Assembly (NCBI GenBank): GCA_023140385.1 | Contig: JAGLLT010000005.1 | Location: forward strand, 1-34,877 | Direction: 5' to 3' | Source of the DNA: Candidatus Omnitrophota bacterium | GTDB lineage: Bacteria; Omnitrophota; Gorgyraeia; JAGLLT01 | Length of the DNA: 34,877 bases | Part shown: one piece after another, positions 9,846-34,816 of the stretch | Layout of the letters: every line of letters starts with the position of its first letter | How positions within the stretch are numbered: the first letter of the stretch is position 1 | The notes under the pieces: model-generated | Databases searched by the model: none | What the model saw: the letters and a program-made list of their open reading frames with translations, nothing else | What the model was told of the DNA's origin: nothing | Program-made: the position numbers and the translations under genes

Positions 9846-10289
9846 TTATTTTTTCGAATTCAGGATGAGTGTTACAGGGCCGTTGTTTTCTAAACTAACT
9901 ATCATATGAGCGGCAAAAATGCCTGTTTTTACATCTAAACCTTTATCTTTTAACAAAGCTCCCGCATACTCATAAAGTTCTTCGGCCTTTTTGGGCTCAG
10001 CCGCTTTGCTAAATGAGGGCCTTAAACCTTTTTTGGTGTCTGCTGTCAATGTAAACTGCGATACAAGTAAAATCTGCGCGGAAACATCTTGAGCCGAGAG
10101 ATTCATCTTTCCTTTGGAATCTCCAAACATTCTTATATTTGCGATTTTCTTTGCCAAATATTCACAGTCAGTTCTATCGTCTTCCGCCTCAACTCCTAAG
10201 AAAACTAAAGCGCCCTTTGAAATAGAGCATATCTTTTGATTGTCTACGCTTACAGATGAGCTATTTACTCTTTGAAGCAAAGCTATCAT
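9846..10289 (-). CDS. dtd: D-aminoacyl-tRNA deacylase
   Basis: LLQRV, GKMNLS, SQFTL, RPSFS, NNGPVT signature motifs. Confidence 0.97.
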   Translation of the reverse strand: MIALLQRVNSSSVSVDNQKICSISKGALVFLGVEAEDDRTDCEYLAKKIANIRMFGDSKGKMNLSAQDVSAQILLVSQFTLTADTKKGLRPSFSKAAEPKKAEELYEYAGALLKDKGLDVKTGIFAAHMIVSLENNGPVTLILNSKK

Positions 10290-15855: not shown

Positions 15856-18800
15856 TTAAAGAGCATTATTGCCATTTTTCTCAACGGTTGAATGGCCTAT
15901 GAGCTTTAGGGTGATGTCGTCGATGATGGCGTAGATGCAGGGCAGGGCGATTAATGTAAGCGCTGTAGCGCAAACTATGCCCCAGACGATTGTCAAAGCC
16001 AGGGGCTTAAGGAAGGGATCACCGCCTCCGATGCAGTAGGCTGTAGGAACTAAACCAAGACTGGTGGTAATTGTGGTAAGTATGACCGGCCTTAACCTTA
16101 ACTGGCCTCCCTTGATAATGGAATCGCGCCTGTCAACCCCTTTCCGGCGCAGTCCGTTTATAAAATCAACCAGGACGATAGAGTCATTAACGACAATGCC
16201 GGTCAGGCCGACTACTCCCATCATCGCGAAGAACCCCAGGGGCATGCCATGGAAAAAGAAGGCCCAGACTACCCCTATAATACCAAAAGGAATGGCCATC
16301 ATTACCACAAGGGGCTGAATCAAAGAGTTAAATGAAGCGGCTAAAATCATAAAGATAAGAAACATAGCCAGCCCAAAGGCTATCAAAAAATTCTTTGTCG
16401 TTTCAATGTTTTCTTTTTGCTCCCCTCCGAACTCTATCTTGCAGCCCGGATACCTCTGAGGAATATCCCTGAATTTCCCTGCTAAAAGATTATTGACTTT
16501 TATTGAAGTTATATTCTTATTATCAACTTCAGCCCTTATCGTAATTACCCTGCGGCCGTTTAAGTGGTTTATAGATACCGAAGATGTTCTTTTCTCCAGA
16601 CGCGCTACTTTTTTTAGCGGAACAAGGTGGCCATACTTATTGGGAATAGTTATTTTTTCAAAGGTAATTTCTTTATCGCGCGCCTCTTCGGGGAAGCGTA
16701 CCAGGACATCAATCTCCTCTTCCGCCTTGGTGGGCTTAATGGAGGTTGCTACCCCTCCCTTAAAGGCATATCTAATGGATGAGGCGATATCCTCTATAGA
16801 TAAATATGAACTGCTTGCCTTTTCTTCATCAACCACAATCCGTATCTCACTTCTGCCGGCTTCATAACTTGAAGCGATATCCGAGACACCTTTTATTCCT
16901 GCCAGATAAGCTGATACCTCATCGCCAATATCTTCTAACACCGTAAAATCCTCGCCCCTTATCTCAACGGCAACAGCCTTTCCTACCGGCGGCCCTTCCT
17001 TTTCTTTTTCAAAATATACCTTTTCAAAACCACTCACATCCTTTAACCCGCTTCTTAAATTCTCAATAATCTCAGATACTGTTTTATCTCTGGTATTAAA
17101 AGGTGTTAGATTAACCGTTACCTGAGCTACGTGGCTTCCCTGTTTGCCGTACTCATCAAACATCCAGCCCATCCCTATCATACCTACCTGAGTTATGTAA
17201 GAGTCAAGCTGGTCATCCGGTAAAACGGCAACCTTCTTTTCTATCTGACCGATAAGCTCATTAGTTTTATATAAATTTGTCCCCACAGGGGCTTCAGCTC
17301 TTATGTAAAACTGCTCTATTGCCTCCTCCGAACCAAAGAGGACAAAGTTCATCTTTTTTGCCAGCATAAAGGTGCCTAAAAGAATAATAATTAAACCAAA
17401 GATAACCCAGTAGCGTCTATTTAAGGCCTTATTTAACAATCGGGTGTAAGACTTCACCAGCCATTTAACGTGAGAAAGCTCCATGCCGGATTTCCCGGCC
17501 AACTTTTTACCGCGCGGGCGTTTTACAAAATCCGCAAAATGAGAAGGCAAAATAATTAGGGCCTCAAGAAGAGAGGCGCATAAAGCAATAATAACAATTA
17601 CAGGTATACCCCTAATGAATTTACCCATTATGCCGGGCAGGAATAAAAGAGGCGCGAAGGCGGCCATAGTCGTTAAAACGGCGGTTACGACAGGCTTTAA
17701 AACTTCCTCTGTGCCCTTTATAGCCGCGGCGCGCGGATCCATCCCCGCTTCCAGATAGCGGGAACAGTTTTCAGCTACAATGATGCCGTCATCTACCAAC
17801 ATACCCAGAACTATAATGAGGCCGAACATTGTAATCAGGTTAACACTTATATCAAGGTAACCCATAACAGCCAGGGTAGCGCCAAAAGCAATAGGAATCC
17901 CCAGGGCGGTTAAAAAGGCCGTTCTGTGATGCAAAAAAAACACCAGGACGCAAATCACCAGGGCGAACCCGATAATGCCGTTGTTTCTTAAGACACCTAA
18001 TCTTCGCCGTATATAATACGAGATATCGTTTGTATAATTAATTTCTAAGTTTTTAGGGGCATTTTGAATAAAACCGGCAGTTTCCCTTTTTACGTCATCT
18101 ACAATTTTAATTGTATCGCCGCTCGACCTTTTAATAACCGTAAGCATTATTGACCTGGTGCCAAAACTCTTATTTATAACATCTTCATCCTCAAAATAAA
18201 ATCTGACACCGGCTACATCTTTTATCCGCAGCCAGTTACCCATATCATTAGCGCGTATAATAACGTTTTCGATTTCTTCTACAGTATGAAACTCTCCTGT
18301 AGTCCGGATGATAATTTCTTCTTCTCCCCGCATTTTTCCCGCGGGAATACTGATGTTGCGCCTCTTAAGAGCCGTCATTATCTCTTTGAGGCTCAAGTGA
18401 AACTCCTCTAATTTATCAGGATCAACCTCCACCCACACCTCTGAATCACGCCATCCCTGACTGGCGATAGAAGAAACTCCTTTAATGTCCTCAAGTATAT
18501 CTTCCAGTTTCTCGGCACACTCCTGGAGCTCAAATTCCGTCAAATCACCACTTAAGGCTATTTTTATAACGGGAATTTCTCCCGAGGTAATTTCAGTTAC
18601 AAGGGGTTCTTCCGCGTCATCCGGCAAGCCTCTGGCCCTGTCAACCGCCTGCCGTATCTCATCGACCACCTTGTCTTTATCTTTTATATCCTGGCTGAGT
18701 TCTAATTGAATTGTGGAAAGATTATCAATTGAGGCTGAGCTCATATCCTCAACCCCGTCAACACCCCTCAGCTCCTTTTCAATAGGAACTGTTACGAGTT

Positions 18801-18987
18801 TTTCTACCTCGGCCGGCGAAGCGCCGGCATAGAAGGTACGAACCACGACCACGTCAAAAGATACATCAGGAAACGCCTCTCTCCTAATCTGATAAACAAA
18901 AATTGTCGCGAATCCGGCTATAAGAATAAATAGTGAGATTAGATTCACTAATAATGAATGTTTAACTGAAAACTCTGAAATCTTCAT
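15856..18987 (-). CDS. RND efflux permease (AcrB/AcrD/AcrF family)
   Basis: 1043 aa; GASPAEVEKLVTVPIE, GMLVDDGIIVAEN, GIVVNDSIVLVD, RLRPVILTT. Confidence 0.96.
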   Translation of the reverse strand: MKISEFSVKHSLLVNLISLFILIAGFATIFVYQIRREAFPDVSFDVVVVRTFYAGASPAEVEKLVTVPIEKELRGVDGVEDMSSASIDNLSTIQLELSQDIKDKDKVVDEIRQAVDRARGLPDDAEEPLVTEITSGEIPVIKIALSGDLTEFELQECAEKLEDILEDIKGVSSIASQGWRDSEVWVEVDPDKLEEFHLSLKEIMTALKRRNISIPAGKMRGEEEIIIRTTGEFHTVEEIENVIIRANDMGNWLRIKDVAGVRFYFEDEDVINKSFGTRSIMLTVIKRSSGDTIKIVDDVKRETAGFIQNAPKNLEINYTNDISYYIRRRLGVLRNNGIIGFALVICVLVFFLHHRTAFLTALGIPIAFGATLAVMGYLDISVNLITMFGLIIVLGMLVDDGIIVAENCSRYLEAGMDPRAAAIKGTEEVLKPVVTAVLTTMAAFAPLLFLPGIMGKFIRGIPVIVIIALCASLLEALIILPSHFADFVKRPRGKKLAGKSGMELSHVKWLVKSYTRLLNKALNRRYWVIFGLIIILLGTFMLAKKMNFVLFGSEEAIEQFYIRAEAPVGTNLYKTNELIGQIEKKVAVLPDDQLDSYITQVGMIGMGWMFDEYGKQGSHVAQVTVNLTPFNTRDKTVSEIIENLRSGLKDVSGFEKVYFEKEKEGPPVGKAVAVEIRGEDFTVLEDIGDEVSAYLAGIKGVSDIASSYEAGRSEIRIVVDEEKASSSYLSIEDIASSIRYAFKGGVATSIKPTKAEEEIDVLVRFPEEARDKEITFEKITIPNKYGHLVPLKKVARLEKRTSSVSINHLNGRRVITIRAEVDNKNITSIKVNNLLAGKFRDIPQRYPGCKIEFGGEQKENIETTKNFLIAFGLAMFLIFMILAASFNSLIQPLVVMMAIPFGIIGVVWAFFFHGMPLGFFAMMGVVGLTGIVVNDSIVLVDFINGLRRKGVDRRDSIIKGGQLRLRPVILTTITTSLGLVPTAYCIGGGDPFLKPLALTIVWGIVCATALTLIALPCIYAIIDDITLKLIGHSTVEKNGNNAL

Positions 18988-19002
18988 TTTTGAGAGTGCC
19001 TT

Positions 19003-20490
19003 TTAATCTTTTATAATTAATATATTTTGCCGTGAAAGATTGGCAAGCATAGCGTTTTTAGCCAACTCAAGCTCTATTTTAGAAACCCGGTATTCAAAGT
19101 AAGTCAGGGCAAGATTTAACTGGGCGCTTAGTAAATCATTTTGAAATCTTATTAGCGTATCGGAGTTTGAACGGCCGTACATAACCCGCTTATGCTCTTC
19201 ATCGAGTTTTGCCTGTTCAAGCTTAACAACCTTGCTCCATTTTTCTATTTTCTCGGCGTCAAGATTAACTCCTCTTACTTTATTATCCAATTCACTTACA
19301 ATAGTAAGCTCCAACTTTTTAAGGCTGATGAGCGCCTTTTTCTTTAATAGCCGGGCTTTTTTATATTGAGATCCGGCCTTTCTGTTTTCAAGGGGCAGGC
19401 TGATATTAACCCCGAAATAATAATCGGAGTTGTTCTCATCAAATACATCCCTGATTGCCTCGCGGCCGTCCGTATCAATACCGTTTCTTTTAAAGGAGGC
19501 AACTAAATCTATCTCCGGCCAGAGGTTATTCTTTTTTACAGCCACCTCTATCTCTTGCGCTTCTACCTTTTTAACGGCTGCCAGATAGTCGCGCCTTGAG
19601 TTTATTGCCTGCTTCATATTAGGTATCAACTCCACCTTTTGGGGCAATATCTCAATGGCATCCCGGGGCGTAAAAGAAGAGGCGAAATTTATGTTCAGGC
19701 TTAGCTTAAGAAGGTTTGAGGCGCTAAGTACCTCATTTTCAGCCACCCGGAGATCAATTTTCCGGATATTCACATTGGCTTTACTGGCAAAAAGGTCGGG
19801 TTTTTCAGATATTCCGCGAGAGAAGCGGTCGCTGTAAACTTCATATAAAAACTCCGCCTTATCAAGCATCCGCTTTTTTAGTTCCACAACCCGACAGCTG
19901 AAAACGATACTCCAGTACTCTATCTCAGCTTGAGCAAGAGCCTGTTCAATTTTATTTAGGCTCAGGAGGTCTGCCTGCTCGACATTTAACTTTGCGGCTT
20001 CTACATCGCCGCGGTCAGCCAAACCAAAAAAGTTCTTTCCCACAGGCTGACTCACAGTTAAAGCTATCGCCGATTCATGAGATGGATTGAGAGTTACAAA
20101 GGCGGAGTTTACGGAGCTTCTCTTGTTCGTAAAGTCAAGACCGACTGATGTTCCGCTTCCAAATTTTTTCGAAACGCCAAAATTATAGTTGGCGGTGTGA
20201 GACTCGCCGCCCAGAAAAGATGAGGCCGCTTTCAATGAATTGTCCTCATAATCAGCTCCCGCGGAAATTATAGCATCAAAGACACTCTTGGCGTCATCCA
20301 CATCCGTATATATATATTCCGCGTCAATTCTGGCTAGTTTAATATCAAGGTTGTTTTCTACAGCAAGACGCATAACCTCATCGCGGCCTAAACTGATAGC
20401 CGGCTCTTTCGCTTCAAGCCGGCAGGCGCATAAAACCGAACTCGCTAAATATAAAACTGTAAGGATAAAAAAGGCTTTTGTAATTTTCAT
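19003..20490 (-). CDS. TolC-family outer membrane factor
   Basis: Signal peptide, LAVENNLDIKLA, WPEIDLVASF, GVNISLPLENR, long coiled-coil helices; upstream of the RND gene. Confidence 0.92.
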   Translation of the reverse strand: MKITKAFFILTVLYLASSVLCACRLEAKEPAISLGRDEVMRLAVENNLDIKLARIDAEYIYTDVDDAKSVFDAIISAGADYEDNSLKAASSFLGGESHTANYNFGVSKKFGSGTSVGLDFTNKRSSVNSAFVTLNPSHESAIALTVSQPVGKNFFGLADRGDVEAAKLNVEQADLLSLNKIEQALAQAEIEYWSIVFSCRVVELKKRMLDKAEFLYEVYSDRFSRGISEKPDLFASKANVNIRKIDLRVAENEVLSASNLLKLSLNINFASSFTPRDAIEILPQKVELIPNMKQAINSRRDYLAAVKKVEAQEIEVAVKKNNLWPEIDLVASFKRNGIDTDGREAIRDVFDENNSDYYFGVNISLPLENRKAGSQYKKARLLKKKALISLKKLELTIVSELDNKVRGVNLDAEKIEKWSKVVKLEQAKLDEEHKRVMYGRSNSDTLIRFQNDLLSAQLNLALTYFEYRVSKIELELAKNAMLANLSRQNILIIKD

Positions 20491-20526
20491 TTTTCAAGTT
20501 AACCTGTTTAAAAAACACTGGGTTTC

Positions 20527-20964
20527 TTATGCTTTTTTATCATCAATAATTTTAACCAGTTTCCTCAAAATCCTGATATACGAACCGCGTTCCTTCTCTG
20601 ATAATCCCAGCGCGAGCCCTTCCCATTTTTTCCTTACTATCTCGATAATAACGATTACCGCCTTTTCTCCCTTGACGGTTAACTTAACAATTACCTCTCT
20701 TCTGTCGTTTTTACCGCGCTGCCGGCTGACATATCCGTTCTTTTTCAGGCGTTCGATAACACCGGTCATAGTCGGCACGGAAACCCCCTTTTCCCTAGCC
20801 AACACACTGATTGTACAGGCCTTAAGATCGCCCAATGTAATAAGAATAACAACCTGCGAAGCCGATAAGTTCAGGCGCGATAGCTTTCGGTCCTTAAGGC
20901 TGCGCATCAGCTTCATATACAAGAATACCATCTCCTGAGCTACCTGTTTAACGTTAGAATTCAT
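20527..20964 (-). CDS. MarR-family transcriptional regulator
   Basis: LSASQVVILITL, TISVLAREKGVSVPTMTGVIERL, DRREVIVKLTVKG. Confidence 0.95.
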   Translation of the reverse strand: MNSNVKQVAQEMVFLYMKLMRSLKDRKLSRLNLSASQVVILITLGDLKACTISVLAREKGVSVPTMTGVIERLKKNGYVSRQRGKNDRREVIVKLTVKGEKAVIVIIEIVRKKWEGLALGLSEKERGSYIRILRKLVKIIDDKKA

Positions 20965-20977
20965 TTGTCTCTCCTAA

Positions 20978-21022
20978 TAGTTAGCTTAACTAAATATTAG
21001 CATACCTTATTGTTTTTGTCAA
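20978..21022 (-). promoter_or_regulatory. marR promoter with palindromic operator candidate
   Basis: TTGACA (21022-21017)-17 nt-TAATAT (20999-20994) with TGn extension; TAGTTA-GCT-TAACTA inverted repeat at 20978-20992 over the predicted transcription start. Confidence 0.7.
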
Positions 21023-21047
21023 GGTTTGGCGCGAAATTTTATTTCTC

Positions 21048-21076
21048 TTGAATTTCAACGGGCTTTAATGGATAAT
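21048..21076 (+). promoter_or_regulatory. Putative sigma70 promoter of the MATE-helicase unit
   Basis: TTGAAT-17 nt-GATAAT, 11 nt before the ATG; no SD. Confidence 0.45.
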
Positions 21077-21087
21077 AGAGCCTGATT

Positions 21088-22449
21088 ATGAGAAAAATAA
21101 ATACCGATAGATTAATCAATGGTAGTATATCAAAAAGTATATTTATCCTAACCCTGCCTCTACTGGTGCGGGCCGGGCTCCAATCCACCCAGACTATCAT
21201 TGACATCTTCTGGGTGGGCAAGCTGGGGCCCGCCTCAATCGCGGCCGTAGCTATGGCCGCCACCGTCATTATGGCCTTTTTCCCTCTTTTAATAGGCATA
21301 GGTACGGGAGCCGCCGCTTTGGTCTCTCGGGCAATAGGCGCCAAAAATCAAGAGGCGGCGGATAATACGGCTACTCAGTCAATAATCATTGCCTTTCTTA
21401 CCGCTCTTTTTCTATGTATAGTCGGCCTAATTTTTTCAAAACCCCTACTCGTGCTTCTTCAGGCAAAAGGTACTGTCCTAACAGAGGGGCATCTTTATTT
21501 AAAAATTATATTTTTGGGCGGCATCACGACCACTCTTCTTTTTTTAGGCAGCGCTATTTTACAGGGCGCCGGAGATACCCTTGTTCCTATGTGTATCATG
21601 GGTTTCTGCGTCCTGGCTAATATTGTTCTTGACCCCATTTTAATCTTTGGCCATTTTGGTGTACCCAAGCTCGGTGTAAGCGGAGCGGCTCTGGCCACCA
21701 TTATAGCTGACGCTCTGGGAGCAATTATTCTTCTGCATATTCTTTTTAAAGGCAGGTCGCATATCCATATAAGATTTGACAAGTTTAAGATAAACACGGC
21801 TGTAATGTGGCAAATTATGAAGATAGGTATTCCGTCATCCGTCCAGATGTTTTTCAGAAACCTGATGGGTATGCTCCTGATGGGTATTGTAGCCTCCTTT
21901 GGCACTTACGCGGTCGCCGCCTACGGCATAGGCATGCGGTTAAGAATGATAATTCTCCTGCCCGCCTTCTCTTTTGGAACGGCCGCGGCCACTCTGGTAG
22001 GTCAGAACCTGGGAGCGAAAAAACCCCAAAGAGCCCAAAAGTGCGCCTGGCAGGCGGCCTTAATCAACGCCTCTATTATGGCCTTTGTTGGCCTGATTTT
22101 CTTTATTTTTTCTGATAATATTATCGGAATTTTTAACAGCAATCAGGAAGTTATCACGGCGGGAGGACACTATCTGAGAATCACTTCTCTGTTCTTTCCG
22201 GCTATAGCTTTTGGTGTAGTTTTAGGCCGGTCTATGAGCGGAGCCGGAGACACTATAACTCCTATGGTTATAACAATTTTATGCCTATGCGGCATACAGA
22301 TACCTTTGGCTATAGGCCTGTCCCGTTTCAGCAGCCAGGGATTAAGCGGAATATGGTGGGCTATAGCCGCGGCTTCGTTAATTCAGGGTATTTTAGCTAT
22401 AATCTGGTTTAAGGCCGGCAGATGGAAAAAAAGAAAACTTAACTTTTAG
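21088..22449 (+). CDS. MATE family efflux transporter
   Basis: About 12 TM helices, IIDIFWVGKLG, LQGAGDT, NIVLDPILIFG, GVSGAALAT, VGQNLGA, GLSGIWWA. Confidence 0.96.
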   Translation: MRKINTDRLINGSISKSIFILTLPLLVRAGLQSTQTIIDIFWVGKLGPASIAAVAMAATVIMAFFPLLIGIGTGAAALVSRAIGAKNQEAADNTATQSIIIAFLTALFLCIVGLIFSKPLLVLLQAKGTVLTEGHLYLKIIFLGGITTTLLFLGSAILQGAGDTLVPMCIMGFCVLANIVLDPILIFGHFGVPKLGVSGAALATIIADALGAIILLHILFKGRSHIHIRFDKFKINTAVMWQIMKIGIPSSVQMFFRNLMGMLLMGIVASFGTYAVAAYGIGMRLRMIILLPAFSFGTAAATLVGQNLGAKKPQRAQKCAWQAALINASIMAFVGLIFFIFSDNIIGIFNSNQEVITAGGHYLRITSLFFPAIAFGVVLGRSMSGAGDTITPMVITILCLCGIQIPLAIGLSRFSSQGLSGIWWAIAAASLIQGILAIIWFKAGRWKKRKLNF

Positions 22450-22473
22450 AAAACAAGGTAAAAATACAAAATT

Positions 22474-24636
22474 ATGACTATTTATGATATATGCAAAAAA
22501 TACAAGGTTGACCTGAAAGTTGCTGAAGTCCTAAATAAACACGGCTACAACCAGCTCTATCCTCCTCAAGAAACCGTCCTTAATGCCGGCGCCTTAGAAG
22601 GAAAAAACCTTGTTCTCTCAATGCCTACCGCCAGTGGAAAAACACTTATAGCCGAGCTTTGTATGCTGCGCTCAATTTTAGAAAGCGGCGGCAAGTGCCT
22701 CTACGTGGTTCCGTTAAGGGCCCTGGCTAATGAAAAATATGAAAATCTAAAGGACAAATACTCATCGCTGGGTATTAAAATAGCTATAGCAACCGGCGAT
22801 TACGACACTCCTTCAAAATACCTGGCCTCTTATCATATAATTGTCGCGACTTCTGAAAAAGTGGACTCGCTTTTGCGGTTTAAGGCGCGCTGGCTTTCTG
22901 AAAGCCTGACGGTAGCTGTTTTTGATGAGATACACCTTTTGAATGACGCATCAAGAGGGCCGACATTGGAAGTTCTGATTGCCAGATTAAAACAATTTAA
23001 TCACGCCCTGCAAATAATCGGCCTGTCGGCCACCATAAAAAATGCCGGGCAAATCGCCAAGTGGCTTGAAGCTGAGTGCTTTATCAGTGATTGGCGTCCG
23101 GTTAGCTTAAAAGAGGGGGTTTACTTCAATGAAGCAGTCAGGTTTGAAGACGGTCAAATCAGGCCTTTAAAGCACATCTCCTCTACACCAATAAATTCCC
23201 TTTGCATGGATACGGTAAAAGAAAGCGGCCAGGTACTTGTCTTTGTCAATACCAGACGTTCCACTCAGGCTGAAGCCAGGCGTATCGCGCCTAATATCAG
23301 AGGCGTCCTGACAGAAAATGATAAAACAAAATTGGAGGTTATCTCAAAAAAAATCACCACCTCAAACCGGGAGCCGACAAAGGTATGCAAAGAGCTAAGT
23401 GAATGTGTAAAAAATGGCGTTGCCTTTCATCATGCCGGCCTTACTCATCAAGAAAGGAAACTGGTAGAAGATAACTTCAAAGGTAATATTATAAAGGTAA
23501 TCTGCTCTACGCCGACCCTTGCCGCCGGCGTTAATCTTCCGGCCAGGCGGGTAATAATCAGAGATTATAAGCGCTACGATGTCAGCCTGGGCGGCTCCCA
23601 CAGCATAGCCGTCTTTGAATATAAACAGATGCGCGGACGAGCCGGGCGCCCTAAATACGACACCATAGGAGAAGCAATAATTATAGCCAAGTCCGAGGAT
23701 GAGCAGGATGTTCTTTTTGATGAATTTATTCATGCCGAACCTGAGCCCATCATATCAAAGCTGGGCAGTGAAAACGCCCTATGCATGCACATACTTTCAT
23801 CCATCTCATCAGGTTATATATGCTCACATAATGGCCTGATGGACTTTTTAAGCCATACCTTCTTTTCTCAGCAGGAAGATCCTGATGAATTAGAGTATAT
23901 TATTGAGCGTATAATCGACTTTTTGGGCTGTGAGGAAATGATTGCCGTTTCTAATAACAAATACGAGCCAACTCCTTTTGGCAGCCTGATATCACGGCTT
24001 TACATCAAACCGCATTCAGGCTTACTGTTAAAAAAGGGCTTAGAAAATTCATCGCGTATTTATCCTTCCGCCATAAACCTCTTGCATCTTATTTGCGCCT
24101 GTCCGGATATGGGAAACCTAAGATTAAGCAAAAAAACTCAGGATGAGGTTGAGATGTTCTTCGGGTTAAACAACGAGGATTTGCTTCTGCCCTTTGGAGA
24201 GTACTTCTCGCGCTCCGACTACAGGGTCTATTTAGAAATGATTTTAACAACGTTGATGCTTAGCAATTGGATGGAAGAAACTAAAGAAGACGAGATATGC
24301 GATAAGTTCCCGGTCGGCCCCGGAGACATAAGAAGATATATTGAAACGGCCAAATGGCTTCTTTATTCTACGGAACAGCTTGCCCGCCTCCTTAAAATGG
24401 AAACAATTATACCACTGCTCCAAAAACTGCAGACGCGCGTAAGGTACGGTATCAAAGAAGAGCTTCTAAATCTGGTAAGCCTGAAGGAGATTGGGCGCGT
24501 CAGGGCGAGAAGTCTTTATAAAAATGGTATTAAGCAATTACGCGATGTAAAAGCGGCCAAAACTGAAACACTGATGAGGGCGGCCAACATCGGCAAAGTT
24601 ATAGCCGCTAACATAAAAAAACAGGTTGAAAAATAA
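22474..24636 (+). CDS. hel308: Ski2-like SF2 helicase, archaeal Hel308/Hjm type
   Basis: LYPPQ, PTASGKT, VPLRALANEK, TGDYD, DEIH...RGPTLE, GLSAT, SDWRPV, AFHHAGL, TPTLAAGVNLPA, QMRGRAGRP, YGIKEEL...IGRVRARSLY, terminal HhH. Confidence 0.9.
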   Translation: MTIYDICKKYKVDLKVAEVLNKHGYNQLYPPQETVLNAGALEGKNLVLSMPTASGKTLIAELCMLRSILESGGKCLYVVPLRALANEKYENLKDKYSSLGIKIAIATGDYDTPSKYLASYHIIVATSEKVDSLLRFKARWLSESLTVAVFDEIHLLNDASRGPTLEVLIARLKQFNHALQIIGLSATIKNAGQIAKWLEAECFISDWRPVSLKEGVYFNEAVRFEDGQIRPLKHISSTPINSLCMDTVKESGQVLVFVNTRRSTQAEARRIAPNIRGVLTENDKTKLEVISKKITTSNREPTKVCKELSECVKNGVAFHHAGLTHQERKLVEDNFKGNIIKVICSTPTLAAGVNLPARRVIIRDYKRYDVSLGGSHSIAVFEYKQMRGRAGRPKYDTIGEAIIIAKSEDEQDVLFDEFIHAEPEPIISKLGSENALCMHILSSISSGYICSHNGLMDFLSHTFFSQQEDPDELEYIIERIIDFLGCEEMIAVSNNKYEPTPFGSLISRLYIKPHSGLLLKKGLENSSRIYPSAINLLHLICACPDMGNLRLSKKTQDEVEMFFGLNNEDLLLPFGEYFSRSDYRVYLEMILTTLMLSNWMEETKEDEICDKFPVGPGDIRRYIETAKWLLYSTEQLARLLKMETIIPLLQKLQTRVRYGIKEELLNLVSLKEIGRVRARSLYKNGIKQLRDVKAAKTETLMRAANIGKVIAANIKKQVEK

Positions 24637-24637
24637 G

Positions 24638-24997
24638 CTATAGAAACTTCCAGAAGGTAATTCCCAGGACAACTAATAGCGCGGCAAAAAAGCGCAGGTA
24701 TGCTTTTGGCATATTGCCTATCAAATCGTCAAATTTGGCGCCGGCCTTTTGATTAACAAATAAAAAAAGCTTAACGGCCATAATAATCCCCGCGGTAGTC
24801 AGCACCTTTAACCATATACCTTGTGCCTTAAAAAACAAGCTAAGGCCAAAGCTTCCCGCGAATAAAAGCAGAAAAATCAGGGTTTTAAACCGCTTCTTCC
24901 TCGCCTTCTTTCTGAAAAAACCCTGAATAAATCCCGGATACAATAAGCCCACAAACCCAATCAGAATCCAGAATATACCAATAATTTTATTAATCAC
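24638..24997 (-). CDS. Small hypothetical membrane protein (about 4 TM)
   Basis: Hydrophobic helices separated by a basic loop; convergent with the helicase, stops 1 nt apart. Confidence 0.7.
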   Translation of the reverse strand: MINKIIGIFWILIGFVGLLYPGFIQGFFRKKARKKRFKTLIFLLLFAGSFGLSLFFKAQGIWLKVLTTAGIIMAVKLFLFVNQKAGAKFDDLIGNMPKAYLRFFAALLVVLGITFWKFL

Positions 24998-25122
24998 AAT
25001 TAAAATACTTACCGATTAATAAGTTTAAAATTTAAAGCGAAAAACTTAAAACCATAGCTAAAAATTCAAAATTTTTTATCTTTTTACTTTTACGTTATAG
25101 TTTTACGCTTTTAGTTTTCTTG

Positions 25123-27171
25123 TCATTCAATCGCGTGCTGAGTCCAATTCGTCCAGTCTATGCTTTTCTCCCAGTTGGAGTCCTTCATAGGGGTAATAAT
25201 AATATCTATGGGTGCTGAAAAAACATCCCCGCAATTAAAGACGCACTCAAGATTTGTCCCATCGGTAAGTGAAAAGTAACCAACTTTCAGCATATCCCTT
25301 ATATCATTAAAAGTGTACTCATCGGCAATTGCAGCGCCGCTGTTATTAATTACGAAAAAGTCGGCTACCAGATTATGGCTGCCGCTGATACTGATTATAA
25401 AACCGTCGGTAGTCGTGCTGGTTGCCGCGTAACAAGCTGTGATAGTGTTAAACTCAACCGTACCATTAACCTTAAGTTCGTAACCGGATACCTGCTGTCT
25501 CCAATCGGCATCATATACTCTGTCGGCAAAAAACACCGTTTCTTCTATGGAATCATCATTGTGAGCCAGGTCAATTTCCATCTTCGTAGGATAGGCAAGC
25601 TTTGAGTTACTCTCCCCCACCTGATAATAAGTAGTATCAGTACTGGTTATTTTATAGGTTCCGCTATCATCAAAAACATTCAGGTAATCACTCCAGGGGA
25701 GTTCATTTACCTCATCTCCTTCAATATCACGGTTAAAGGTGGTAAGCCAGCTAAGGGTCGTTAGCCCTTCCCTGCTCTGGTTGGAAGCGTCGTTGGTTCT
25801 TAAATTAATATCTAATATCTGGATTTTTTTTGAATTTGGGCGCAAAATATACTGCTCAACCCTCACGCGGTTGCCCTCTCTGTCAGTCATCACCTTGTGC
25901 ATCTGGGCATCGGCGCGCTGGGTAAGACGAGCGTCCATATCGCGCCAGTACATATCGGTAGTATGCTGGGCTATATCATCCCTTAAGCTGCCGATTTCTA
26001 TTAAGTTGAGTATCTTCTGCCTTATCTCATGGCGGGAACCATAGCCTTTTACAGAACTGTCATCGTGAATAACAGCGTCACTTATAAAGGCATCCTCGTT
26101 ATTCCTTATACCGTCGCCGTCAGAGTCGGCGTAGTCATAATAGTCTCTGGGGTATGTATCGGCCGTGTTAAGATATCCGTCGCCGTCAATATCACTGTCA
26201 AATTCGTCATCTATGCCGTCGCCGTCAAGGTCATTACCGGAGGCGCGGCTTGAGTCATTAGGATACAAATCATCACTGTCTAAAACACCGTCGCCGTCCG
26301 AGTCAAGAAGGCTATCCTGTCTTCTTTTCTCGGCGCCCTGGCTATCCTGATCGCTCTCTTTATCGAGCACCGCGTCTTCCTGAGAATCATCCAAATTATC
26401 ACCAATATTATCAGTATCACCGGTTACATTATTGTCGCCTTTAGAAGAAGATCCTTCAGCGGGGGGATTATTGCCCATCATAGTTCCGACTGACTTTTTC
26501 CAACTCTTCCATTTATTTTTTTCCTGAGAGCTCAACTTTCTGTCCGGCCCGACAAAATCACGGCCTATCACTTTTTTAAAGCCCTCCTTGATCACATACT
26601 CATCACCGGACGGCTTTCCATCTTTGCCGGTTTGCTGAAAATAAATGTTGTGCTCAAAGCAGGAAGCCGTTGTAACGGGATTATGCTTAACACTAAAACC
26701 CGTACCCTTTGAACCGCAGATTGCCGTTGGCGTACGGACTTCAAACTTAGAACCCCCTTTAAAGCCCTCCAGGATACAAAACAGCTTTCCTTTGTCAAGC
26801 CCGAACTCTGTCCGCGCCGGTTCTATTTTGTTCATAGTAACAACCGTATCAGCGTCCACTTTTAGTACACCTTTTAAATCAGGTTCATTTTTACAGCTAA
26901 TGAGAAGCTCGGCGTAAGAGTTCTTTTTGCCGGTCTTTAACATATCTCCTTCAGACAACTCTCTGCCAACTTCCGCCGCCCGCCATAATTTTGCGCCATC
27001 CCGCTGAAATAAAACCTTGCCTTTAAGCCGGATGATTATAACTTTTTTATCAGCTGACAACAGTTGTCTTTGAGCTTCCGCGTAAGATAAATTAGTTAAG
27101 CAGACGGTTGTTGCCGAATAGACGGCCAGGGCAATAACAGCCAAAAGGGCTATTCTCTTTACCATGGTCAT
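25123..27171 (-). CDS. Secreted FecR-domain protein with thrombospondin type-3-like Ca-binding repeats (paralog A)
   Basis: Signal peptide; LSEGDMLKTG...FEVRTPTAICGSKGTGF (FecR-like); acidic linker; DSDGDG/DLDGDG/DIDGDG repeats; unassigned C-terminal domain. Confidence 0.85.
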   Translation of the reverse strand: MTMVKRIALLAVIALAVYSATTVCLTNLSYAEAQRQLLSADKKVIIIRLKGKVLFQRDGAKLWRAAEVGRELSEGDMLKTGKKNSYAELLISCKNEPDLKGVLKVDADTVVTMNKIEPARTEFGLDKGKLFCILEGFKGGSKFEVRTPTAICGSKGTGFSVKHNPVTTASCFEHNIYFQQTGKDGKPSGDEYVIKEGFKKVIGRDFVGPDRKLSSQEKNKWKSWKKSVGTMMGNNPPAEGSSSKGDNNVTGDTDNIGDNLDDSQEDAVLDKESDQDSQGAEKRRQDSLLDSDGDGVLDSDDLYPNDSSRASGNDLDGDGIDDEFDSDIDGDGYLNTADTYPRDYYDYADSDGDGIRNNEDAFISDAVIHDDSSVKGYGSRHEIRQKILNLIEIGSLRDDIAQHTTDMYWRDMDARLTQRADAQMHKVMTDREGNRVRVEQYILRPNSKKIQILDINLRTNDASNQSREGLTTLSWLTTFNRDIEGDEVNELPWSDYLNVFDDSGTYKITSTDTTYYQVGESNSKLAYPTKMEIDLAHNDDSIEETVFFADRVYDADWRQQVSGYELKVNGTVEFNTITACYAATSTTTDGFIISISGSHNLVADFFVINNSGAAIADEYTFNDIRDMLKVGYFSLTDGTNLECVFNCGDVFSAPIDIIITPMKDSNWEKSIDWTNWTQHAIE

Positions 27172-27373: not shown

Positions 27374-29626
27374 TTAATCGTTCCACCAATCTGTCCAGAG
27401 TTCGTCGTTAACAGGAACGATAATAATATCTATAGGATTAGTGAATCTCGTGGTAGTGCCATCCGGCAGGCCGGTGAACTCCCACGGATCAGAGGTAACT
27501 GAGCCGCCTGGGCCCCCCACCCTTGTCTGCAGTCTGGTCTGATTATAGCCGTTGGTTACCTGAAGACAACTGAACAAAGCCTCTAAGTTACTCCCGTTTT
27601 CGAGGTCAAAGTAACCTACCCTTAACATATCCTTGAGGCCGGCTATCTCAACGTCACCTCCAACAATATCCCCGCTATTATTTATGGCGAAGAATTTGGC
27701 GAGGAGCGCTTCATTAACGGTTCTTGTCTGTGTGCGCGTCCATATCCAGGGCATCATAGGATTCGGATCCCAATCCGGGTCATCAAGACTGCTGTCAAGA
27801 GCTACAACAAAGTTGCCTGGATTTCCCGCGCTATAAACCAGGGCGTCTTTAAATGCCCCTAAATCATCAAAGATAGGAGTACCGTTTATAGCAAACTCAT
27901 AACCGATTATATCCTGCCAGTAATTAGTAACTACCTTCCTATGGTTCCCAAAATTCGTATATTCATAAATGGAGTCCGCGTTGTGCGTCAGCTCAAGCTT
28001 CATATCATCAGGGTAAGCGCAATTCGGATCTTCACTTGGCACCTGATAATAAGTTGTATCCGAACTGGTTATTCTGAAAGGATCAGCAGAACCGACAACC
28101 GTCAGATAATCCTCCCAGGGTAAAAGTGGTATCTCATCAGAGCTTATATGGCGGTTAAAGGTCATCGCCCAATTCAATGTAGTCAGTCCGCTGTACGGCG
28201 TATCACCCGTTCTCAGGTTAACATTGATTAACTGAATTTTCTTATCAGCCGGGCGAAGCACATACTGCTCAACTCTCACACGGTTGCCATGCTTATCCAT
28301 CATTACCTTGTGCATCTGGGCATCGGCGCGCTGGGTAAGGCGGGCATCCATATCGCGCCAATATATATCCTGAGTATGCTGGGCTATATCGTTTCTGAGT
28401 TCGCCCACTTCTATCAGGTCTAATATTTTCTGCCTTATCTCATGGCGGGAACCGTAACCCCTTACGGAAGTATCCGGATCAATCACCGGATCATTCTTAA
28501 AGGCGTCTTCATTATCTCTTATACCGTCGCCATCTGAGTCAGCGTGGTCATAGTAATCTCTGGGATAGGTATCGGCCGCGTTAAGATAACCGTCACCGTC
28601 AATATCACTGTCAAACTCATCATCTATACCGTCACCGTCAAGGTCATTGCCCGAAGCGCGGTTTGGATCGTTAGGGTATAAATCGTCTTTATCTAAAACA
28701 CCATCGCCGTCTGAGTCCAGCTCTGTACTGACGAGAGTATCTCCTCGAGGCTGATTACCCTGACTATCCTGCTCGCCTTGCTTATCCACATTCGCGTCGT
28801 TATGTGAATCCTTTGACCCTTTATTCAAACCGTCCGCGTCCTTGCCTAAATCGTCGGATGGCTTATCGGGAGGCGGCGTATAAGGGTCTGCTTCAGGGCC
28901 TTCATCACCTGATATATTTTTATTAAAGAAAGAACCTAAGTTTCTTCTCCACGAGTTCCACCTTCTCTTCTGCCACGGGCTGATTTTTCTAATAGGGCTC
29001 GCGTATTCACCTGAACCGATTGTTTTCTTATGCCCTTCATTAACGTTTTGTTTATCACCCGTAGGATTACCGCTGTCATCAAGAGGTTCCATATAAATGC
29101 TGTGTTCAAAACACGAACCGATTGTCTTTGAAGCATGCTTCACGACCCAGCCGGTTCCGCGCGCTCCGCATATGGCAACGGGCGTACGAACTTTAAAGGT
29201 CGAGCCTTTCTTCATCTTTTCGACTATACAGAACAACTCACCTTTATCAAGTTTAACTTCCGTGTCATTCGGCTTTATCTTCTCGAGCTTAATCTGTGTG
29301 CCCGCGTTCACCCTGATTACATTCTTCTTTTTTGATTCCTCGCTATAATTAAAACAAAGTTCGGCGAAAGAACCAACTTTTCCGGTTTTAACACTGTCAC
29401 CGCTCACAAGCTGCATAGCCTGACGCGCCTTTTCCCAGTCAGCCTCACCGCTCTTAAGAACTTTTACATTACCTTTTAAGCGAATAATCGTAGCTTCATT
29501 GCCTGAAAAAGTTATGCTCCTAAGGCCGTCTTCCGCCTCCGCCGGCGAAAAAAACATAATTGACGATAGAAAAGCAAAAGCAACAACCCCTGACAGCACT
29601 CTGCTTACTCTTTCTCTATAATTCAT
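27374..29626 (-). CDS. Secreted FecR-domain protein with TSP3-like repeats (paralog B)
   Basis: Signal peptide ending AEA; LVSGDSVKTG...FKVRTPVAICGARGTGW; same DxDGDG block and core as paralog A. Confidence 0.85.
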   Translation of the reverse strand: MNYRERVSRVLSGVVAFAFLSSIMFFSPAEAEDGLRSITFSGNEATIIRLKGNVKVLKSGEADWEKARQAMQLVSGDSVKTGKVGSFAELCFNYSEESKKKNVIRVNAGTQIKLEKIKPNDTEVKLDKGELFCIVEKMKKGSTFKVRTPVAICGARGTGWVVKHASKTIGSCFEHSIYMEPLDDSGNPTGDKQNVNEGHKKTIGSGEYASPIRKISPWQKRRWNSWRRNLGSFFNKNISGDEGPEADPYTPPPDKPSDDLGKDADGLNKGSKDSHNDANVDKQGEQDSQGNQPRGDTLVSTELDSDGDGVLDKDDLYPNDPNRASGNDLDGDGIDDEFDSDIDGDGYLNAADTYPRDYYDHADSDGDGIRDNEDAFKNDPVIDPDTSVRGYGSRHEIRQKILDLIEVGELRNDIAQHTQDIYWRDMDARLTQRADAQMHKVMMDKHGNRVRVEQYVLRPADKKIQLINVNLRTGDTPYSGLTTLNWAMTFNRHISSDEIPLLPWEDYLTVVGSADPFRITSSDTTYYQVPSEDPNCAYPDDMKLELTHNADSIYEYTNFGNHRKVVTNYWQDIIGYEFAINGTPIFDDLGAFKDALVYSAGNPGNFVVALDSSLDDPDWDPNPMMPWIWTRTQTRTVNEALLAKFFAINNSGDIVGGDVEIAGLKDMLRVGYFDLENGSNLEALFSCLQVTNGYNQTRLQTRVGGPGGSVTSDPWEFTGLPDGTTTRFTNPIDIIIVPVNDELWTDWWND

Positions 29627-33832: not shown

Positions 33833-34816
33833 TCAAGTCTTAACTTTTAACTTAAGCATCTTTACCATTTCTCTAAAATCCTGATAACACCCTTCTTTCT
33901 TTTTGATTTCCTCTGCTGCCAAACGAAATTGTTTTGAAAGCGCCGCGTATGATATCCCGCCCAGCACGGTGCATATATCACGACACGGTATATATAGATA
34001 TTGTCTGCATATATATGCTGCGGCTTTTCTTTTTAGAATGTATTTTTTGTTTTTCTTTCGCGCAAAAATACCTTTTTCTCCGATTTTGTTCTCAAGCGTC
34101 CTTATTGCATCGTTGGCTGAGATAGCTCTCATGCTCTCTTTATATTGCGGAATTTCTCTTTTTTCTATTCTCTTACCCCGCAGATTCTCTCGTATAGCAG
34201 CTTTAAATGCTTCTCCTCCAAGAATTGCCGGCCATTTAATCCCGTTTAGTATCGTAGATAATTCTTTCAGTGTTTCCTCTTTGACAAATGCGTCTAATTG
34301 CCGCATGGCTTCTTTTTCAAATTCGCTAAATTGCATTAAAACGTCTTTTGTTTTTAGCCATTGCGGACGCCTGCTTATCTTCATGTATGCAGAGTGGCTT
34401 GTCCACTCATGCTGGCCTATTTTTTCCTCAAGCTTTGCTCTATAAGGATTTCTGTGTATGTAGCGGATTAGCTCACTTAAATAGCTTTCTTTTTCTATTA
34501 GTATCGATTTAAACCGTCCCTTAAAAAGGCTTCCTTCGTTGTTATATTTTCTGTTTATTTTCTGAGTATAAACACCATTTAGGTGCCTCATACCTCGCGA
34601 TAGGTTGCCGTTAGGGGTACGTATAAGCAGGTGGTAGTGGTTTGGAATTAGCGAATAAGCGTGGATTTCGATATTAAATAATTCGGTACATTCTTCCAAT
34701 ATCTTCAAAAATAGTTTGTAGTCGCTATCGAAGAAAAATATGTTTTCCCGCCTTCTTCCGCGATTTAACACATGATACCATGCGCCGGGATATTCAATTC
34801 TTAATGGTCTTGCCAT
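33833..34816 (-). CDS. HUH Y1 transposase, REP-associated (RAYT/TnpA-REP type), with C-terminal HTH
   Basis: MARPLRIEYPGAWYHVLNRG, PNHYHLL (HUH), GSLFKGRFKS, RYIHRNP (catalytic Tyr), WTSH; C-terminal DnaA_C-like helix-turn-helix. Confidence 0.92.
   Translation of the reverse strand: MARPLRIEYPGAWYHVLNRGRRRENIFFFDSDYKLFLKILEECTELFNIEIHAYSLIPNHYHLLIRTPNGNLSRGMRHLNGVYTQKINRKYNNEGSLFKGRFKSILIEKESYLSELIRYIHRNPYRAKLEEKIGQHEWTSHSAYMKISRRPQWLKTKDVLMQFSEFEKEAMRQLDAFVKEETLKELSTILNGIKWPAILGGEAFKAAIRENLRGKRIEKREIPQYKESMRAISANDAIRTLENKIGEKGIFARKKNKKYILKRKAAAYICRQYLYIPCRDICTVLGGISYAALSKQFRLAAEEIKKKEGCYQDFREMVKMLKLKVKT

Follow-up and report, generated by a model that had tools for sequence, protein, structure and literature searches.

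How does a bacterium come to carry a complete helicase of a family that is regarded as archaeal and eukaryotic? The question is raised by a stretch of 34,877 nucleotides from a Candidatus Omnitrophota bacterium (assembly GCA_023140385.1, contig JAGLLT010000005.1; this whole stretch is called the window below), on whose plus strand the gene hel308 (22474..24636) encodes a protein of 720 amino acids. A preliminary description, made from the sequence without database searches, had recognized the full Hel308 layout in an intact reading frame and had proposed a transfer from archaea to bacteria. Our analysis agrees on the protein and leads to a different history. With a probability of about 0.8, hel308 encodes a functional Hel308/Hjm-type Ski2-like DNA helicase of superfamily 2 (SF2) that came from an archaeon long ago and has been passed on vertically ever since, like any other gene of the chromosome.

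The protein is a complete Hel308/Hjm-type helicase, as evidenced by its reading frame, its Pfam domains and motifs, its matches in the PDB and NCBIfam, and a structural model, all of which bear out the layout first described. The frame is uninterrupted from its ATG start, with only 4 codons of open frame upstream, and the N-terminus aligns with homologues from residue 1. The five domains of Hel308 follow each other in order, all on the plus strand: a RecA1 core (Pfam DEAD, residues 30-190; 22561..23043) with motifs I (PTASGKT, 51-57), II (DEIH, 151-154) and III (SAT, 185-187), a RecA2 core (Helicase_C, 282-393; 23317..23652) with motifs IVa (AFHHAGL, 317-323) and VI (QMRGRAGR, 385-392; 23626-23649), a winged-helix domain 3 (HTH_61, 399-490; 23668..23943), a ratchet domain 4 (Helicase_dom4_arc, 535-659, E 8e-33; 24076..24450) and a helix-hairpin-helix (HhH) domain 5 (HHH_5, 666-718; 24469..24627). 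Domain 5 holds GRVRAR (674-679; 24493-24510), the RxRAR brake motif, within IGRVRARSLY. This architecture and the role of domain 5 as a brake are described in parts of a review (PMC13623763), and motif IVa is named in the abstract of PMC10484726. The protein thus combines the SF2 core motifs of Hel308/Hjm (I, II, III and VI as QxxGRAGR) with the F/YHHAGL form of motif IVa, an arginine and a tryptophan in the ratchet, and the RxRAR of domain 5. In an alignment with 75 sequences the core motifs I, II, III and VI are constant except at position 387, and so are F318-L323, Q385 with G388-R392, R621, W628, and G674, R675, R677 and R679. R621 and W628 align with the RR...W stretch in the ratchet helix of A. 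fulgidus Hel308, the helix in which an arginine and a tryptophan stack on the strand being translocated.

A wider comparison comprised 110 proteins from individual loci, 37 of them bacterial rows and 73 others (71 labelled archaeal, plus the records L054 and L056). All 110 carry motif I and DE[IV]H, the brake motif reads GR[VI]R[ASG]R in 37/37 bacterial rows, and the GRxRxR form is found in 70 of the 73 others. The arginine in motif VI, pointed out early on as unusual, is indeed so: QMRGRAGR occurs in 4/110 proteins, L001-L004, which make up the window's own subclade, and the position of residue 387 is taken by A, C, M, F, S or V in the other 106. The remaining 33 bacterial rows read QCAGRAGR (31), QMSGRAGR (1) or QFAGRAGR (1), and neither QCAGRAGR nor QMRGRAGR is present in any of the 73 rows outside the clade.

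Assignment to the family is equally clear from structures. In a phmmer search of the PDB the protein matched P. furiosus Hjm (2zj2) with E 4e-159 over residues 10-709, A. fulgidus Hel308 (2p6r) with E 8.9e-159 and S. solfataricus Hel308 (2va8) with E 1.3e-144, far beyond chance, and Brr2 structures were weaker matches. An AlphaFold2 model built from the 75-sequence alignment reached a mean predicted local distance difference test (pLDDT) score of 91.3, and Foldseek superimposed it on Hjm/Hel308 structures with TMq 0.85-0.89 over 684-729 columns (0.88 for 2zj8 and 2p6r, 0.85 for 2va8). Among NCBIfam models, four archaeal Hel308 equivalogs score highest, PRK02362 (855.8 bits against a cut-off of 887), PRK00254 (667.7 against 1216), NF040935 (601.2 against 1200) and PRK01172 (503.3 against 891); note that these cut-offs are operational, whole-protein thresholds of models built from archaeal subgroups. 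It is because the score falls narrowly below the curated archaeal cut-offs that public records call the protein only a 'DEAD/DEAH box helicase'. Two other identities were considered and rejected. The model for Lhr-type, ligase-associated DEXH helicases (TIGR04121) gave 120.1 bits against a cut-off of 850 and covered residues 20-267 only, and the Sec63 cassette of Brr2-like Ski2 proteins was not found by Pfam in the window protein, while the control L116 has it. RecQ and RecG models scored far below their cut-offs. In phylogenetic trees the protein was placed among Hel308, apart from ASH-Ski2, Brr2-like and Lhr helicases.

The contig itself is bacterial, and chimerism is excluded. The window is an entire contig (C45) of a 1.50-Mb metagenome bin of 57 contigs, estimated to be 92.7% complete, and as already noted in the preliminary description hel308 stands among bacterial genes. 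According to Pfam and NCBIfam these extend along the whole contig and include PlsX, acetate kinase, Pta, CoaD-like, RsmD-like, GH65, a GT4 glycosyltransferase, Dtd and LemA, as well as an AcrB-type RND pump, an OEP/TolC-like channel, MarR, MATE and two FecR-domain proteins. The stretch was found in four cold-seep metagenome runs of one study (X1 to X4), whose contigs bridge both junctions of hel308. Single contigs span 18474-25921 in X1 (record 2) and 18000-23448 in X2 (record 7), the contigs of X3 span 21150-23450 and 24308-25665, and those of X4 span 22367-24528 and 24522-25921. Read depth is even across both junctions. Two of the four bridging runs are possibly the source of the assembly and all four come from one study, which limits their independence; X3 and X4, which are not flagged as a possible source, show no differences at the junctions. 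What settles the point beyond runs of a single study is that the gene order around hel308 is retained in other genomes. The composition of hel308 is likewise that of its host, with z-scores of 0.58 for GC content and 0.67 for GC at third codon positions relative to 790 long open reading frames (ORFs) of the genome, and with a codon-usage distance at the 39th percentile among 79 ORFs of similar length.

Is the gene, then, peculiar to this genome? Matches at E<=1e-50 were obtained in 60/401 genomes of the phylum, the window genome included, and in 43/282 genera. One of them, in genome G271, has 30% identity and was rejected as Hel308, being a 1008-residue fusion of a caspase and a helicase without Hel308 domains, which leaves 59/401 positive genomes. 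Some families are positive throughout (f22 15/15, f18 5/5, f30 3/3, f1 2/2) and f27 is so in 9/13 genomes, and families without a match include f4 (0/25), f24 (0/17) and f3 (0/16). A closed one-contig genome of 3.4 Mb (G357) is among the positives. Incomplete copies are cut at contig ends (G288, G363, G384) or split over two contigs (G324, G335), and the copy of G371 consists of two neighbouring pieces with a single TGA. The window protein is 96% identical to a Candidatus Omnitrophica record, 65-69% to others and 50-52% to the best archaeal sequences. The view of Hel308 as archaeal in nature from which the preliminary description started holds for control genomes, where the domain-4 model PF21280 matched 4/4 archaeal and 0/10 bacterial genomes, but the 59 Omnitrophota genomes are an exception to it, and this distribution in the lineage contradicts the transfer into this particular genome that the description implied.

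The phylogenetic position of the bacterial sequences was examined with a scan at one genome per species, which gave at least 602 stretches; 593 were confirmed and the best 80 retained, 9 of which are labelled bacterial and the others archaeal. All trees are quick searches with branch support from the Shimodaira-Hasegawa-like approximate likelihood-ratio test (SH-aLRT) only. A first tree of 80 rows, from IQ-TREE under LG+C20 with posterior mean site frequencies (PMSF), comprised 30 Omnitrophota loci, the 9 bacteria-labelled loci, a Ratteibacteria protein, 31 loci of non-halophilic archaea, 8 of 40 Halobacteria loci (32 being left out) and an MSBL1 protein. In this tree 38 bacterial rows form one clan (98), namely the 30 Omnitrophota loci, 4 named Omnitrophota, 2 records labelled 'Planctomycetales', the Ratteibacteria protein and an unclassified 'bacterium' (L035, where hel308 adjoins an ExbD gene). 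Within the clan, rows group by family code (f18, f22, f27, f30, f32). Had the protein clustered with a widespread bacterial helicase clade, a transfer would have been called into question; a bacterial clan was indeed found, but it is itself sister to seven Hadarchaeota/MSBL1 rows (99), and both together have a support of 100. Mean identities are in accord with this tree, with 49.4% between bacteria and Hadarchaeota, 41.0% between bacteria and other archaea, and 46.7% between Hadarchaeota and other archaea. A second tree was rooted with an ASH-Ski2-like (L121) and a Brr2-like (L116) protein of a Halococcus genome, on very long branches of 3.7 and 3.2; here 15 bacterial rows (93) again join Hadarchaeota/MSBL1 (99), with the root placed between rows of euryarchaea.

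Two Omnitrophota genomes, G226 (family f14; L150:5913-8042) and G201 (family f31; L151:915-3062), gave the weakest full-length hits, with 40-42% identity, and are true Hel308 proteins with PF21280. They pair with each other (100) and then with an archaeal record, L087 (99), whose contig carries an archaeal GatD, away from the main clade. Joining all 17 bacterial rows costs 59.8 log-likelihood units and is rejected by the approximately unbiased (AU) test (p 0.002), with the caveat that the group of G226, G201 and L087 was named after the tree had been seen. As judged from these sequences, the Omnitrophota hold at least two separate Hel308 lineages. In the L087 contig an ORF with LAGLIDADG and ArsR-type helix-turn-helix domains (L087:4640-6004, plus strand) overlaps the start of hel308 at 6001. 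In G201, hel308 is followed by a gene for an SNase-like nuclease and by an MshEN-PilZ gene, and in family f22 (L142, L144) recO and hel308 are separated by a gene of the SNase-like kind (cluster c29), so that a helicase-nuclease pairing may recur.

Some database labels deserve comment. L054 (Candidatus Acidoferrum sp.) and L056 ('bacterium') fall inside Bathyarchaeota, beside the near-identical L046 and L055, and are probably mis-binned or mislabelled archaeal contigs. The labels of L039 and L042 (uncultured Planctomycetales), which have a dtd-hel308-recO locus and are nested in Omnitrophota family f27, look doubtful, as does that of L031, a 'Hodarchaeaceae' record deep within Hadarchaeota.

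Further insight comes from the chromosomal site. Ten loci of other families were inspected. They show hel308 in divergent orientation to dtd-tatD(-DUF3352), with recO-ybeY-(7TM-HD)-phoH on its other side; dtd is adjacent to hel308 in 7/10 and one ORF away in another, and recO lies within the stretch in 6/10. The named loci L037-L042 have dtd adjacent in 6/6 cases, both 'Planctomycetales' records included. The conservation of this bacterial housekeeping neighbourhood points to vertical descent from one insertion. Five genomes without Hel308 were searched for a recO-dtd junction that lacks hel308; the query used found dtd in two of them (G008, G012), in another context. In the window, dtd (D-Tyr-tRNA deacylase; 9846-10289, minus strand) is still divergent from hel308, at a distance of about 12 kb with efflux genes between them, and recO stands with ybeY and phoH on another contig of the genome, C39. 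The simplest reading is a rearranged ancestral site, not a new acquisition. The changed context is not confined to the window either. The arrangement OEP (minus), MATE (plus), hel308 (plus) is common to the window, to G083 from its family and to G292 from its order, and a marR gene (minus) can stand after OEP; OEP-MATE-hel308 is thus shared with two other genera, which have a Hel308 with 66-67% identity to that of the window, and G083 and the window have in addition a downstream FecR-like gene and three further genes in common.

Taken together, the bacterial clan, its grouping by family, the conserved site and the sister relation to Hadarchaeota/MSBL1 mean that a transfer, if there was one, happened long ago and at the base of much of the phylum. 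The trees give a sister relation and not a direction, because a root on the bacterial stem, which keeps the 32 archaeal rows in one group, costs no more than 1.47 log-likelihood units and is not rejected by the AU test (p 0.44). The direction is taken from the distribution: Hel308 was found in 4/4 archaeal controls and in many archaeal phyla among the best 80 loci, and among the bacteria examined it is confined to part of one phylum, so that an archaeal origin is the most economical reading of the sequence data. A single old capture from an archaeon by Omnitrophota, followed by vertical descent, is the most likely course of events. Of the transfer first proposed, an archaeal origin thus remains likely, with Hadarchaeota/MSBL1 as sister group, and its placement in this genome is not supported.

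Other histories have to be weighed against this one. An archaeal fragment joined to a bacterial contig during assembly or binning might be suspected in a bin of 57 contigs, given that L054 and L056 look like mislabelled archaeal contigs, but with contigs of X1 to X4 crossing the junctions, the absence of differences there in X3 and X4, synteny in other genomes and a copy in a closed genome the chance of such an artefact is practically negligible. A recent transfer from an archaeon into this genome alone would suit a family that is archaeal in control genomes and an efflux/MATE context unlike that of other Omnitrophota. We consider it highly improbable, as the closest relatives are bacterial by a wide span of identity, the gene lies within the bacterial clan and has a host-like composition, the OEP-MATE-hel308 order is shared with two other genera at 66-67% identity, and the ancestral neighbour dtd is still on the contig in unchanged relative orientation. 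It could also be that no transfer took place and that Hel308 dates back to the last ancestor shared by Bacteria and Archaea, disappeared from nearly all bacteria and was retained by Omnitrophota. The bacterial-stem root permitted by the AU test and the single bacterial clan would agree with this, and yet the gene is absent from all 10 bacterial controls and from most genomes of the phylum, the clan is closest to one archaeal lineage (99-100; 49.4% against 41.0%), and the second Omnitrophota lineage, which sits with a different archaeon and cannot be joined to the first, indicates that transfer does occur; we hold such retention to be improbable. Transfer in reverse, with an ancestor of Hadarchaeota/MSBL1 exchanging its own Hel308 for the Omnitrophota version and an ultimate origin still in archaea, draws on the fact that the trees give sister groups without a direction. 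It seems quite unlikely to us, for it requires an extra, earlier transfer into bacteria, and Hadarchaeota are closer to other archaea (46.7%) than the bacterial sequences are (41.0%), a pattern that a derived bacterial clade would produce.

The old capture with vertical descent that we favour has difficulties of its own. About 85% of the sampled genomes of the phylum are without hel308, so that a single gain needs many losses, or else the gene spread among members of the phylum later on. The trees, quick searches with SH-aLRT support, include no more than 30 of the 59 positive genomes, and the archaeal sample, the best 80 of at least 602 stretches, is without Thermococci, Archaeoglobi, Methanosarcinia, Sulfolobales and most Asgard and DPANN lineages, for which reason the donor lineage is provisional. 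To these come the bacterial-stem root that the AU test tolerates, and the NCBIfam score slightly below the curated equivalog threshold. On the side of regulation, treated below, co-transcription with MATE and control by MarR are deduced from spacing and a conserved palindrome only, and marR was not found in G083, where the MATE-hel308 tandem is present.

What would the protein do in its host? Since the catalytic core, motif IVa, the ratchet Arg and Trp and the domain-5 arginines are conserved and the fold is that of DNA-bound Hel308, the mechanism of the archaeal enzymes can be carried over, and the window Hel308 is probably an active enzyme, as far as sequence and model allow. It would load at gaps or stalled forks and translocate 3'-to-5' on single-stranded DNA at the expense of ATP, with strands separated at the hairpin of RecA2, and would unwind or anneal DNA while one strand is drawn along the ratchet helix in domain 4; domain 5, the HhH domain with GRVRAR, might serve as a brake or annealing switch. 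These domain roles and the switch between annealing and translocation follow the review cited above, in the parts that concern them (PMC13623763). The window genome also encodes three helicases that score above their respective cut-offs, namely RecG with 732 bits, one of the RecQ family with 458 bits and PriA with 444 bits. A role of Hel308 as the replacement of a resident helicase is ruled out by their presence, and Hel308 is accordingly an additional activity, which would work beside the three and not instead of them. The adjacency to recO in most families hints at a part in gap or fork repair; recO and hel308 are convergent there and not co-transcribed. A bacterial single-stranded-DNA-binding protein (SSB) with an acidic tail ending in EEVPF is present in 5/5 relatives examined. 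The SSB model PF00436 found no match in the window genome, which is 92.7% complete, and this absence most likely reflects an assembly gap. A binding prediction for the Hel308-SSB pair of G083 gave a score of 0.00 and counts neither way.

In the window lineage hel308 has acquired a different setting. It follows a gene for a MATE-family efflux transporter (21088..22449, plus strand; Pfam MatE 3.1e-69, TIGR00797 292 bits, above cut-off) after a spacer of 24 nucleotides (22450..22473) that contains AAGGT 14 nucleotides before the ATG, and a site scan found no promoter-like or terminator-like site in this spacer. The two longest ORFs overlap by 1 nucleotide in G083 and are separated by 4 in G292, and the tandem is kept in 3/3 genomes of families f1/f2. 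Co-transcription with MATE, suggested in the preliminary description, is therefore plausible from the arrangement of the genes, the gap and the tandem standing as described and the joint transcript itself being inferred. The nearest upstream promoter-like site on the plus strand lies before MATE, at 21048-21076; note that the 10 promoter-like sites of the region are no excess over the 9.1 expected by chance. Divergent from the tandem, a MarR-family regulator is encoded on the minus strand (20527..20964; Pfam MarR 4.7e-15), and the gap of 123 nucleotides between marR and MATE holds a predicted operator-like inverted repeat, CTAATAGTTAG/CTAAATATTAG (20974-21000), overlapped by a predicted sigma-70-like promoter of marR (TTGACA-17-TAATAT; 21022-20994, minus strand). 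The TAAATATTAGCATA core and TGTCAA are identical in G292, which has a MarR counterpart at the equivalent place with 36% identity. In this lineage hel308 would probably be transcribed with the MATE pump from the divergent marR-MATE promoter region, and control of the tandem by MarR is possible. Beyond marR, on the minus strand, lie the OEP/TolC-like channel (19003-20490), whose place is kept in G083 and G292, and the AcrB-type RND permease (15856-18987), both assigned by Pfam and NCBIfam. As a separate observation, X3 contains, for the OEP-marR region, another version from a diverged strain (19862-21094; record 15, 43 differences), in which 20400-20527 is replaced by 127 other letters; its MATE-hel308 part is identical.

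This setting invites the thought that the helicase has changed its job and acts on RNA, as other Ski2-like helicases do, or in a stress or defence module together with the efflux genes, instead of at forks. The new neighbours MATE, MarR and RND, the motif VI arginine fixed in this subclade only, and the presence of RecG, RecQ and PriA, which already serve fork rescue, speak for such a change, and the retention of all elements for DNA contact and control (R621/W628, motif IVa, GRVRAR), the position beside recO in most families and the match to the fold of DNA-bound 2p6r (TMq 0.88) speak against it; we think it unlikely. A bolder picture, tentative and on balance doubtful, would combine both lineages: Omnitrophota, which include epibionts and predators of archaea, would have taken up Hel308 from archaea on two or more occasions and made it part of bacterial recombinational repair, beside recO in the main clade, and the window lineage would have rewired it as a MarR-controlled MATE-hel308 efflux operon that couples the export of genotoxins to fork rescue, the arginine in motif VI marking the shift. 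If this were true, it would represent a natural experiment in Hel308 working without RPA, PCNA or RadA.

A literature search found no publication that links Hel308 to Omnitrophica or Omnitrophota or uses the term 'bacterial Hel308'. The main texts of PMC10066038 and bioRxiv 10.64898/2026.06.07.730766 do not contain 'helicase', 'Hel308' or 'Ski2', and their supplements could list the gene. A survey of archaeal Ski2-like proteins (PMC10946056) does not treat bacteria in the sections at hand, and in passages of a 2026 review the conservation of Hel308/HELQ is said to extend 'from archaea to humans' (PMC13623763). The gene adds to a known family a member from a domain of life where it was not expected, and within its own lineage it is ordinary. 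An Omnitrophota species is portrayed in part of PMC10066038 as an epibiont of bacteria and archaea that apparently kills its hosts, and such an epibiont or predator lifestyle might offer a route for the uptake of archaeal DNA. The stable bacterial clade beside RecG, RecQ and PriA implies that Hel308 can fit a bacterial replisome and repair setting, and that a cross-domain transfer of a core genome-maintenance helicase can stay fixed for long periods. Bacterial Hel308 proteins are tractable material for finding out which activities need archaeal or eukaryotic partners. There is also a consequence for annotation, as Omnitrophota Hel308 genes are currently labelled 'DEAD/DEAH box helicase' only.

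Other features were noted in passing. An ORF of 119 amino acids without a family match (24638..24997, minus strand) is convergent with hel308, 1 nucleotide from its stop. It is followed by tandem FecR-domain paralogues of 682 and 750 amino acids (25123-27171 and 27374-29626, minus strand), each with an N-terminal FecR domain that resembles Leptospira LipL45/Lsa33; a repeat-induced joint between them (about 25618-25921 and 27588-28000) appears in contigs of 4/4 runs. Near the end of the window an ORF of 327 amino acids (33833-34816, minus strand) carries a Y1 transposase domain of the IS200 type that is confined to its N-terminal part, and the usual length of such transposases is about half of this. 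The caspase-helicase of G271 (L152:4542-7568, plus strand) has an N-terminal Peptidase_C14 caspase fused to an SF2 core of DEAD and Helicase_C and is directly followed by a Ser/Thr protein kinase gene (L152:7643-9286, plus strand), and the two may form a defence or signalling module.

How does the window protein compare with known systems? The bacterial helicases Lhr, RecQ and RecG are, like Hel308, 3'-5' helicases of SF2 that act in replication-coupled repair, and Lhr-core also has the order RecA1-RecA2-winged helix-domain 4, as set out in part of PMC8301817. The Lhr structure 5v9x is nevertheless a distant match (E 2.4e-13) limited to the RecA core. Metazoan HELQ and the helicase-like domain of POLQ have the Hel308 core fold in common with the window protein. 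It is without the N-terminal extension of about 300 amino acids that is given for HELQ in a portion of PMC13623763, and without the polymerase part to which POLQ is joined; the POLQ helicase domain (5a9f/5aga) matches with E 1.9e-64 over the RecA core and TMq 0.75-0.79. For the gene arrangement, E. coli lexA-dinF offers an analogy, in which a MATE exporter is transcriptionally coupled to a gene of the DNA-damage response. It differs in that the partner in the window is a helicase and the nearby regulator is of the MarR type, and the window MATE matches the DinF model weakly (46.8 bits against a cut-off of 409). By far the closest likeness is to archaeal Hel308/Hjm (2zj2/2zj5/2zj8, 2p6r/2p6u and 2va8), which has equal length and the identical order of five domains, shares motifs I, II, IVa and VI, the ratchet Arg/Trp and RxRAR, and is 37-42% identical in structural alignments. 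In contrast to these enzymes the window protein has the arginine in motif VI, at a position occupied in archaea by A, M, C, F, S or V, and it resides in a bacterial host with RecG, RecQ and PriA, whose relatives have a bacterial SSB. The partners of archaeal Hel308 are RPA, PCNA, Hjc and RadA; given the bacterial ones, these four are not expected beside it, and bacterial SSB was the partner searched for. Among archaea, the Hel308 proteins of Hadarchaeota/MSBL1 stand in an archaeal genomic setting and do not have the motif VI forms QCAGRAGR and QMRGRAGR of the bacterial clade, but with 50-51% identity to the window protein they are its nearest sampled archaeal relatives and form the sister group of the Omnitrophota sequences.

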